From Caldivirga maquilingensis IC-167 (GTDB lineage Archaea; Thermoproteota; Thermoprotei; Thermoproteales; Thermocladiaceae): a stretch of DNA of 32,000 bases. Location of the stretch: NCBI RefSeq assembly GCF_000018305.1, contig NC_009954.1:540001-572000 (forward strand), written 5' to 3'. Below the pieces are notes generated by a model. It did no database searches. It was not told the DNA's origin and was given only the letters and a program-made list of their open reading frames with translations. The first letter of the stretch is position 1. Every line of letters begins with the position of its first letter. The position numbers and the translations under genes are program-made. This document shows, piece by piece, positions 8,988 to 10,032 of this stretch.

Positions 8988-9201
8988 CCCTCCTAACAAG
9001 TCTCCTAAGCCCCCTGGGAGTCACTAGTATTATGCAGTTGTTTAACCAAACGTAGTACCTGCATGACTTAACCGGTATAATCAACACCCTCCCAGTCTCA
9101 GTGAGGAGCCTAATGGTGCCTTCAGTTTGCCCAATCACTAAACCCCTTAACCCATTCATGTTACTGTTCCTGCAGTCAACCAACTCAACCCTAAGGGGCA
9201 T
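8974..9201 (-). CDS. rnp1: RNase P protein component 1 (Rpp29/Pop4), short form
   Basis: 75 aa. LRVELVDCRNSNMNGLRGLVIGQTEGTIRLLTETGRVLIIPVKSCRYYVW fits the Rpp29 Sm-like pattern v.V..s.n..l.G..G.Vv.ET..T..i.t..g....iPK....f. A TATA-like TTTAATAT (9226-9233) lies about 27 nt upstream. Confidence 0.7.
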   Translation of the reverse strand: MPLRVELVDCRNSNMNGLRGLVIGQTEGTIRLLTETGRVLIIPVKSCRYYVWLNNCIILVTPRGLRRLVRRVNAQ

Positions 9202-9251
9202 GTTAACTTAAGCCACTTACCCTTTAATATGCGTTAACTTACCTCAAGGAA

Positions 9252-9327
9252 TGTACCCCGCCCGGAGGGGCTGGGATCATGGGTGGGGTTAAATCCCCAT
9301 CTCACCCTTACCCACACCTACGGGGCA
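9252..9327 (-). ncRNA. K-turn hairpin sRNA with 3' ACA (H/ACA-like guide RNA candidate)
   Basis: Minus-strand RNA: U-GCCCCG-UAGGUGU-GGG-UAA-GGG-U-GA-GAUGGGG-AUUUAA-CCCCACC-CAU-GA-U-CCC-AG-CCC-CUCCGGG-CGGGGU-ACA.
- Lower stem: GCCCCG/CGGGGU.
- Two 7-nt unpaired strands form a possible pocket.
- Upper stem carries a K-turn: 3-nt bulge CAU, tandem G.A/A.G, then a U.U pair.
- ACA directly follows the stem, 13 nt from the upper-stem base.
- It is a GC island in AT-rich spacer, with a TATA about 27 nt upstream.
- The K-turn exists only on this strand. Confidence 0.45.
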
Positions 9328-9349
9328 TTTTAAATTAATAAACTTAACC

Positions 9350-9356
9350 TTATAAA
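9350..9356 (-). promoter_or_regulatory. TATA box for the H/ACA-like sRNA
   Basis: On the minus strand CTTTATAAGG lies 24-30 nt upstream of the first stem nucleotide (9326). Confidence 0.45.
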
Positions 9357-9438
9357 GATTCCCAGTAATGGCATCCATAATGAGTCAGCCTCGATACGTG
9401 GATACGTGGTTTAAGTAAGCTAAGACCTTAGGTAAAGG

Positions 9439-9446
9439 TTATAAAG
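9439..9446 (+). promoter_or_regulatory. TATA box for rps19-rps17 operon
   Basis: TTATAAAG lies 23-30 nt upstream of ATG 9469. Confidence 0.55.
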
Positions 9447-9468
9447 GTGAACCTATATTGGGTTAGTA

Positions 9469-10032
9469 ATGTCTAAGAAGCCTGAGGGCAAGGTTGAGGC
9501 TAAGCCAACTGCTAAGGCAACTGAAGCCGCCGCGGCAGCTGCGCCTGCGGCTGCTGGTGCGGAGGAGGAGAGTAGTGCTGAGGCTGGTAGGAGAGGCTGG
9601 ATAATGCCTACTCCAATCCCCCAGGAGGAGTGGAAGAACTTTAAGTACAGGGGGTTTACCTTCGATGAATTAATGAAGATGCCTATGAATGAGTTCATTA
9701 AGCTCCTCCCAGCCAGGCAGAGGCGAACCCTTAAGAGGGGGTTGAGGCCATGTCACAGGCAGTTGCTTGAGAAGATTAGGAAGGCTAAGGCCTTCGCGGC
9801 TAAGGGTAAGAGTATACCAGTTAGGACTCATTGCAGGGACATGATTATACTGCCTGAGATGGTTGGTTTAACCATATTTGTTTACAATGGTATAACCTAC
9901 ATTCCAGTACCAATATCACCATGGCATATTGGGCATTACCTAGGTGAATTCGCAATAACCACTAAGATAGTGCAGCATGGTGAACCAGGTTTGAAGGCAA
10001 CTAAGTCAACACTACACATAGCTGCTAAGTGA
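9469..10032 (+). CDS. rps19: 30S ribosomal protein uS19 (S19p/S15e) with about 45-aa low-complexity N-terminal extension
   Basis: The core from residue 46 (…[19 protein letters not shown]…[13 protein letters not shown]…[26 protein letters not shown]…[21 protein letters not shown]) is unmistakably uS19/eS15-like. TATA position favours the long form. The alternative start is ATG 9604. Confidence 0.9.

Follow-up and report, generated by a model that had tools for sequence, protein, structure and literature searches.

The window analysed here is a stretch of 32,000 nucleotides from Caldivirga maquilingensis IC-167 (contig NC_009954.1, positions 540,001 to 572,000). Within it, a 267-bp gap between the divergent starts of rnp1 (9201) and rps19 (9469) holds a compact, GC-rich element of about 75 nt, which we read as a candidate box H/ACA guide sRNA (Table 1). 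As a preliminary description of this stretch had it, the element lies directly upstream of the gene for an RNase P protein, on the same strand and 50 nt before the rnp1 ATG. The predicted Rpp29-like product of rnp1 is very short, and its match, which spans positions 11-61 of PF01868, is barely over the cut-off of 27. A reduced RNase P has been described for this lineage.

Table 1. Features of the rnp1-rps19 interval in window coordinates; strand parts of the element are listed from its base towards the apex, followed by the ACA and TATA boxes.
Feature	Position	Strand	Remarks
rnp1, Rpp29-like, 75 aa	8974-9201	-	Pfam PF01868, 28.8 bits
rps19	9469-10032	+	
Predicted H/ACA guide sRNA gene, ~75 nt	9252-9326	-	assigned as orthologue of Pyrobaculum sR201
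Lower stem, 5' strand GCCCCG	9321-9326	-	paired with 9255-9260
Lower stem, 3' strand CGGGGU	9255-9260	-	backed by covariation
Pocket, 5' guide strand UAGGUGU	9314-9320	-	core GGUGU predicted to pair with 16S ACGCC
Pocket, 3' guide strand CUCCGGG	9261-9267	-	CUCCGG predicted to pair with 16S UUGGAG (4 Watson-Crick + 2 G.U)
Upper ('GA') stem, 5' strand GGG-UAA-GGG (UAA in the internal loop)	9305-9313	-	read directly; covariation
Upper stem, 3' strand: CCC, AG, CCC	9268-9275	-	read directly; covariation
K-turn, non-bulged strand U-G-A	9302-9304	-	read directly
K-turn, bulged strand: 3-nt bulge CAU, G-A, U (U.U with 9304)	9276-9281	-	read directly
K-turn C-stem of 7 layers (second layer an A.C mismatch) with its 6-nt apical loop	9282-9301	-	
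ACA box	9252-9254	-	13 nt past the upper stem; same spacing as Pae sR201
TATA box TTTATAA	9350-9356	-	-30 to -24 relative to first paired base G9326

Direct reading of the sequence places every stem, the K-turn, the ACA and the TATA box at the minus-strand positions that had been claimed for them, together with the 3x2 internal loop of the upper stem, the single A.C mismatch of the C-stem and the 13-nt distance from the upper stem's base to the ACA. The GC island is equally real, with a GC content of 0.60 at 9250-9309 vs 0.33-0.45 in the flanks. The minimum free-energy fold of the minus strand (-37.9 kcal/mol) includes every stem; its z-score of -1.82 is not significant, 10 of 200 shuffled sequences folding equally well. 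The plus strand folds too, at -34.6 kcal/mol, and the claim that the element forms on the minus strand only thus holds for the K-turn and ACA features and fails for hairpin formation as such. Taken by themselves, the modest z-score and the nearly equal fold of the opposite strand would also suit a GC-rich hairpin formed by chance or a decayed remnant without function. Folding energy was not used as evidence for the element, which exceeds chance because of its conservation and covariation, not its energy.

A permissive Rfam scan of positions 9100-9500 was led by three H/ACA families (PyrR201, Pab19 and HgcG), all of them full-length minus-strand matches and all sub-threshold. The best, to RF02801 (PyrR201), reached 19.1 bits (E 0.78 in this 401-base scan) against a cut-off of 49, and RF02801 gave no match in a whole-genome search of C. 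maquilingensis (complete, 2,077,567 bp) or in the scan of the Caldivirga genomes. The same model is above its cut-off in 17 of 18 genomes of genus g7, in 8 of 9 of genus g8 and in two genomes of genus g5, which belongs to the same family as Caldivirga; in genus g3 it gives 39-41 bits in four of seven genomes and 26-33 bits in two more.

We searched with two covariance models of our own, R1, for which the six Caldivirga copies alone were used, and R2, built from 38 orthologues. Each finds a single match in the C. maquilingensis genome, at the element itself (E 2.6e-22 for R1, 3.3e-13 for R2). Trained on Caldivirga alone, R1 recovers 19 of the 30 RF02801 loci tested, with identical coordinates, and 32 of 43 tested orthologue loci outside the genus, at RF02801 or R2 coordinates, the rest being found by R2; of the family's 31 genomes, 26 have exactly one R1 match each. 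R2 yields one strong match in 58 of the 61 other Thermoproteales genomes, with a second, weak match in two; its matches include every RF02801 site above cut-off, and none was found in 58 genomes from other orders of the class. In the comparison with the RF02801 sites, R1 and R2 match these and nothing else, g5 sequences pass threshold with both models, and the GGYGU, CUCC and ACA spacing is common to the Caldivirga element and sR201. By these model matches the element is assigned as the Caldivirga orthologue of Pyrobaculum sR201, an RNA that, on the same searches, is single-copy across the order Thermoproteales.

A weak BLAST match to the upper-stem region at 626429-626460 of the same genome was considered as a paralogous sRNA and rejected, since it resembles coding sequence. 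A literature search on Caldivirga H/ACA RNAs returned nothing specific.

Within the genus, the hairpin is kept in all five other Caldivirga genomes at 82-98% identity, while its flanks diverge. The proposed structure was tested on an alignment of the 38 orthologues which, having been fitted to the model, somewhat favours the structure; the margin is nevertheless large. Standard pairs fill 87.7% of the alignment cells. Covariation scores 0.482; shuffled alignments give 0.161 (none of 500 shuffles reached 0.482), and slid controls, in which pairing partners were moved by one to three columns, give at most 0.111. Covariance among relatives had been named in the preliminary description as a check on the stems, and it supports them: 15 of the 19 base pairs change on both sides, and all five helices are backed by compensatory changes. 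In the lower stem (helices 1-2), five of six pairs show changes on both sides and 92-100% of cells are paired; in the C-stem (helix 5), six of seven pairs covary. The second layer of the C-stem (window 9283/9300; alignment columns 33/59) is non-Watson-Crick in 30 of the 38 orthologues, a conserved mismatch that is A.C in Caldivirga and G.G in Pyrobaculum.

Single-stranded and motif positions are held just as tightly. The bulged K-turn motif NNU-GA occurs in 38 of 38 orthologues, and the non-bulged strand reads GA followed by G in 36, with AA in the other two. The two sides of the pocket, GGYGU-G (5') and CYC-CUCC (3'), are conserved in essentially all 38, and the ACA is invariant in the six Caldivirga copies and present, as such or as an ANA variant, in nearly all orthologues. 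The box directly follows the lower stem, and its spacing accords with the roughly 14-16 nt that archaeal H/ACA guides have between target position and box. Near-invariance amid diverging flanks, a single copy in nearly every genome of the order, strong covariation and a conserved promoter spacing (described below) leave a chance hairpin or a functionless remnant with a negligible probability. The call of an H/ACA-type guide, in turn, draws support from the H/ACA families that head the Rfam scan, from the reach of R1 and R2 to sR201 loci and from the compensatory changes.

The stem that leads from the pocket to the second G.A pair comprises 11 stacked layers in g1 (Caldivirga), g2, g3 and most of g5, and 10 in Pyrobaculum and Thermoproteus. 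Solved complexes show ten layers, and the published span for motifs of Pyrococcus abyssi is 8-11 (PMC4652768). Nine uninterrupted pairs and two G.A pairs make up the stem in g2 and g3; in Caldivirga the K-turn stands 11 layers from the pocket with one bulged A, and the 3x2 internal loop sits where the g2 and g3 orthologues have two Watson-Crick pairs. The suggestion that the element might be one of the atypical Thermoproteales variants is not borne out: it falls into the canonical sR201 family, with an internal loop where its sister genera have ordinary pairs.

All 13 orthologues inspected, from four genera, have an AT-rich TATA-like box at roughly -24 to -30, the end of which is 19-24 nt away from the hairpin, in flanks that are otherwise unrelated between orthologues. 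This conserved spacing fits an independent gene. The position of the element nonetheless invites another reading, namely that it is a cis-regulatory leader of rnp1, in which the K-turn binds L7Ae, a protein shared by RNase P and the guide RNPs, and tunes rnp1 expression, either instead of or in addition to serving as a guide in trans. The short same-strand distance to rnp1 favours such a role, as does the retention of this arrangement in all six Caldivirga genomes. A further point in its favour comes from genome G006 (L008:1500-1575, minus strand), where the ACA ends on the very A that opens the rnp1 ATG (…CACATGGC…); this overlap leaves no room for an rnp1 promoter, and the two must be co-transcribed.

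In four other genera the association was not seen. No match to rnp1 lay near the sRNA orthologue at 20 loci of g3, g5, g7 and g8, in about 1.5 kb of downstream sequence, whereas the RNA is conserved across the order with the same guide sequences. Moreover, in five of the six Caldivirga genomes (G000, G002, G003, G004 and G005) a second TATA-like box separates the sRNA from the rnp1 start. In C. maquilingensis (G000) this is ATATTAAA at 9230-9223, 22-29 nt upstream of the ATG, which suggests that rnp1 may be transcribed as a leaderless mRNA from a promoter of its own in this interval. A leader role would also leave the invariant guide strands and the ACA box unexplained. We consider it very improbable that the element is an rnp1 leader; owing to the co-transcription in G006, a small probability remains for an added cis role of the K-turn. 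The ATATTAAA box is itself conserved in G003 and G004.

A separate observation concerns g5, in which four loci (L073, L077, L078 and L069) share a strongly conserved stretch about 20-70 nt downstream of the sRNA (…GTAGTGGTAT…CCTCGG…GTTATTG…). This stretch may be another gene or small RNA.

The target implied by the two pocket strands as first described, CCCGGAG-UN-ACACCUA, is absent from the rRNAs, the tRNAs and the whole genome. A scan of 16S, 23S and the two genome strands that tolerated G.U pairs and mismatches did not rescue it: the best matches lie in coding DNA at chance level, and those in rRNA fail to convince. Related guides proved more informative. Three Caldivirga genomes carry GGCGU in place of GGUGU, and Pyrobaculum guides carry GGCGU and CUCCAA; these variants pointed to a target with GGAG and ACGCC. 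The 16S gene contains AAUUGGAG-UCA-ACGCCGGAA, and the helix-31 target fragment includes UUGGAGUCAACGCCGG. The match, UUGGAG-UCA-ACGCC, amounts to 6+5 bp and is the sole site in 16S and 23S with at least 6+5 contiguous pairs. Its uridine lies outside the window, on the minus strand at genome position 129715; the equivalent positions are E. coli 966, yeast 1191 and Methanocaldococcus jannaschii 914.

Among genomes of the order with an assembled 16S, the 20-nt target is identical in 30 of 32 and one base off in the other two. All 38 guides pair with the helix-31 site, through 11-14 bp in total (5-8 bp for the 5' guide and 5-7 bp for the 3' guide; in four g3 rows the 3' guide was taken from a reading of the alignment). 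The 3' guide has an invariant CUCC, followed by A or G in 38 of 38 and by a second A or G in 35 of 38, both positions facing U; in the 5' guide the third base of GGYGU (U9316 here) is U or C, opposite a target G. The g3 5' guide, UCCGGCGU, is a perfect 8-bp complement of ACGCCGGA. For a 14-bp match of this kind the chance expectation in the rRNAs is about 1e-5, estimated as 4^-14 times the number of rRNA uridines. The Caldivirga sequence alone is far less telling: 45 sites genome-wide are equally good, which translates to about 0.05 expected in rRNA by chance, and the assignment of the target depends, for this reason, on the family-wide pattern. None of the 45 falls in the 36 tRNA genes identified by ARAGORN, a set that may miss intron-containing tRNAs.

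Pairing at helix 31 leaves three nucleotides (U, C and A) unpaired, vs the canonical two. The pocket is known to tolerate more than two unpaired residues, with the 5'-most unpaired U being modified, according to the account of De Zoysa et al. 2018 given in PMC7075261. The most likely target is predicted to be the conserved uridine of the 16S helix-31 loop, in the decoding region.

A second possibility is that the RNA does work as an H/ACA guide but that its main targets, or further ones, lie elsewhere, be it at several sites, in an mRNA or in another sRNA. There is precedent in one classic hairpin, sR435, that serves eight sites through imperfect pairing (PMC11077068), and candidates exist: CUCCGGG has a perfect 7-bp partner in 23S, CCCGGAG-U at gene position 413, and pairing over 7+7 and 7+5 bp is seen at two sites outside the rRNAs. 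The 23S site, however, hardly pairs with the 5' guide and needs a guide extension seen only in Caldivirga, while genome-wide matches are as many as chance would give. The match at helix 31 is the only one that all 38 orthologues retain and that g3 lengthens. Other main or extra targets are in our view unlikely, though with an appreciable residual probability. The 23S site reads CCCGGAG-UA-CCAC and could be a second, single-sided target or a product of chance.

Weighing these alternatives, we consider it very probable that we are dealing with a box H/ACA guide sRNA of one hairpin, orthologous to sR201, that targets the helix-31 uridine of 16S rRNA. Points that count against this reading are the sub-threshold RF02801 score, the third unpaired nucleotide in the guide-target duplex, the 11 layers between pocket and K-turn in place of the 10 of solved complexes, and the weak target match of Caldivirga taken singly.

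The 16S and 23S genes of this genome are longer than their models. The former (C1:129150-130828) has 1679 bases and the latter (C1:125848-129088) 3241, vs 1478 and 2987 positions in the Rfam models, which suggests introns or insertions in both.

The predicted target uridine lies in the UCAAC loop, where yeast 18S rRNA carries m1acp3-pseudouridine 1191 and M. jannaschii has pseudouridine 914, the substrate of Nep1, which methylates only pseudouridine at the UCAAC motif (PMC2853112). In Sulfolobus islandicus the equivalent uridine, 16S-U930, is hypermodified, and its pseudouridylation is guided by sR435 through a weak, bulged pairing (PMC11077068). The C. maquilingensis genome encodes Cbf5, Nop10, L7Ae-family proteins and Nep1/EMG1 (170 bits); Gar1 gave a weak match of 20.6 bits, under the cut-off. 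Because Nep1 needs a pseudouridine at this position, a guide for the helix-31 uridine is to be expected. Tsr3 (PF04034) is absent from the C. maquilingensis genome, which is 99.97% complete. Among the genomes of the family, this acp transferase for the helix-31 uridine is absent in all g1, g2 and g4 genomes and present in seven of seven g3 and 13 of 13 g5 genomes. The absence of Tsr3, with Nep1 present in C. maquilingensis, suggests a lineage-specific loss of the last hypermodification step.

That the RNA is transcribed, binds its proteins and acts in catalysis, and which modified base results, are those parts of our reading that we infer, and they may be put together as follows. Transcription of the sRNA would begin at G9326 or immediately before it, driven by a TATA promoter of its own. 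L7Ae would bind the K-turn, with Nop10 and Gar1 completing the particle. The pocket strands would then flank the helix-31 uridine by pairing CUCCGG with UUGGAG and GGUGU with ACGCC, leaving U, C and A free, and Cbf5 would turn the uridine into pseudouridine, which Nep1/Emg1 would methylate at N1. Since a Tsr3 gene is lacking, the end product in Caldivirga is probably m1-pseudouridine, not m1acp3-pseudouridine.

Two further ideas go beyond this scheme. The guide may hold, order-wide, to a fixed non-canonical pocket with three unpaired target nucleotides (U-C-A), combined in the Caldivirga family with the 11-layer stem, and this might be specialised for handing the UCAAC loop over to Nep1. With its gene coupled to rnp1, the Caldivirga K-turn might also act as an L7Ae-responsive leader that links the supply of guide RNPs to that of RNase P. 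We regard this extended picture as unlikely.

In practical terms, the analysis adds a missing annotation, a previously unflagged Caldivirga copy of the known sR201. The Rfam sR201 model misses Caldivirga and most of its family, and the broader model makes the RNA single-copy in essentially all Thermoproteales. It also ties the sR201 family to a concrete predicted target, the uridine of the 16S P-site loop that is m1acp3-pseudouridine in eukaryotes. The presence of guide and Nep1 with Tsr3 absent yields a testable prediction, m1-pseudouridine in Caldivirga, and the predicted pairing supplies a case from nature in which a pocket configuration of three nucleotides is conserved. The general understanding of H/ACA guides is unchanged by it; put plainly, this would be an ordinary guide RNA of a heat-loving archaeon.

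Among known systems the closest is sR201 itself, one of two canonical Pyrobaculum H/ACA sRNAs according to the account of Bernick et al. 2012 in PMC4652768. Like it, the Caldivirga RNA is a single hairpin with a GC-rich lower stem of 5-6 bp, guides GGYGU (5') and CUCC(R)(R) (3'), a GA / NNU-GA K-turn, an ACA 13 nt past the upper stem and one copy per genome, and the two are joined by reciprocal covariance-model matches bridged by the g5 and g3 sequences. Unlike it, the Caldivirga copy stays at 19.1 bits with RF02801 (cut-off 49) and has an upper stem of 11 layers, not 10, with a 3x2 internal loop. Its 3' guide would meet two target U's by G.U rather than A-U pairs, its 5' guide would contribute 5 bp only, because an A faces target G974, and its location upstream of rnp1 is seen only in this genus.

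A probable functional counterpart is sR435 of S. islandicus, which guides 16S-U930 and seven other sites (PMC11077068). Both are, on our reading, classic single-hairpin crenarchaeal H/ACA RNAs for the yeast-1191-equivalent uridine, with weak or irregular pairing at the target and Nep1/Emg1 acting downstream. They show no detected sequence relationship, R2 finding nothing outside the Thermoproteales, and in contrast to the many-target sR435 only one conserved target is supported for the Caldivirga RNA. S. islandicus, moreover, has Tsr3, which Caldivirga does not.

The eukaryotic parallels lie further away. Human SNORA13 (ACA13) is an H/ACA snoRNA that guides 18S pseudouridine 1248. Its yeast equivalent in this comparison, snR35, is the H/ACA snoRNA that guides 18S pseudouridine 1191 (PMC2853112, PMC11077068). 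Both are two-hairpin RNAs without a K-turn and have no detectable sequence homology to the Caldivirga RNA, yet like it, on our reading, they serve the first step at the universal UCAAC loop towards m1(acp3)-pseudouridine, a pathway that in Caldivirga probably stops at m1-pseudouridine.
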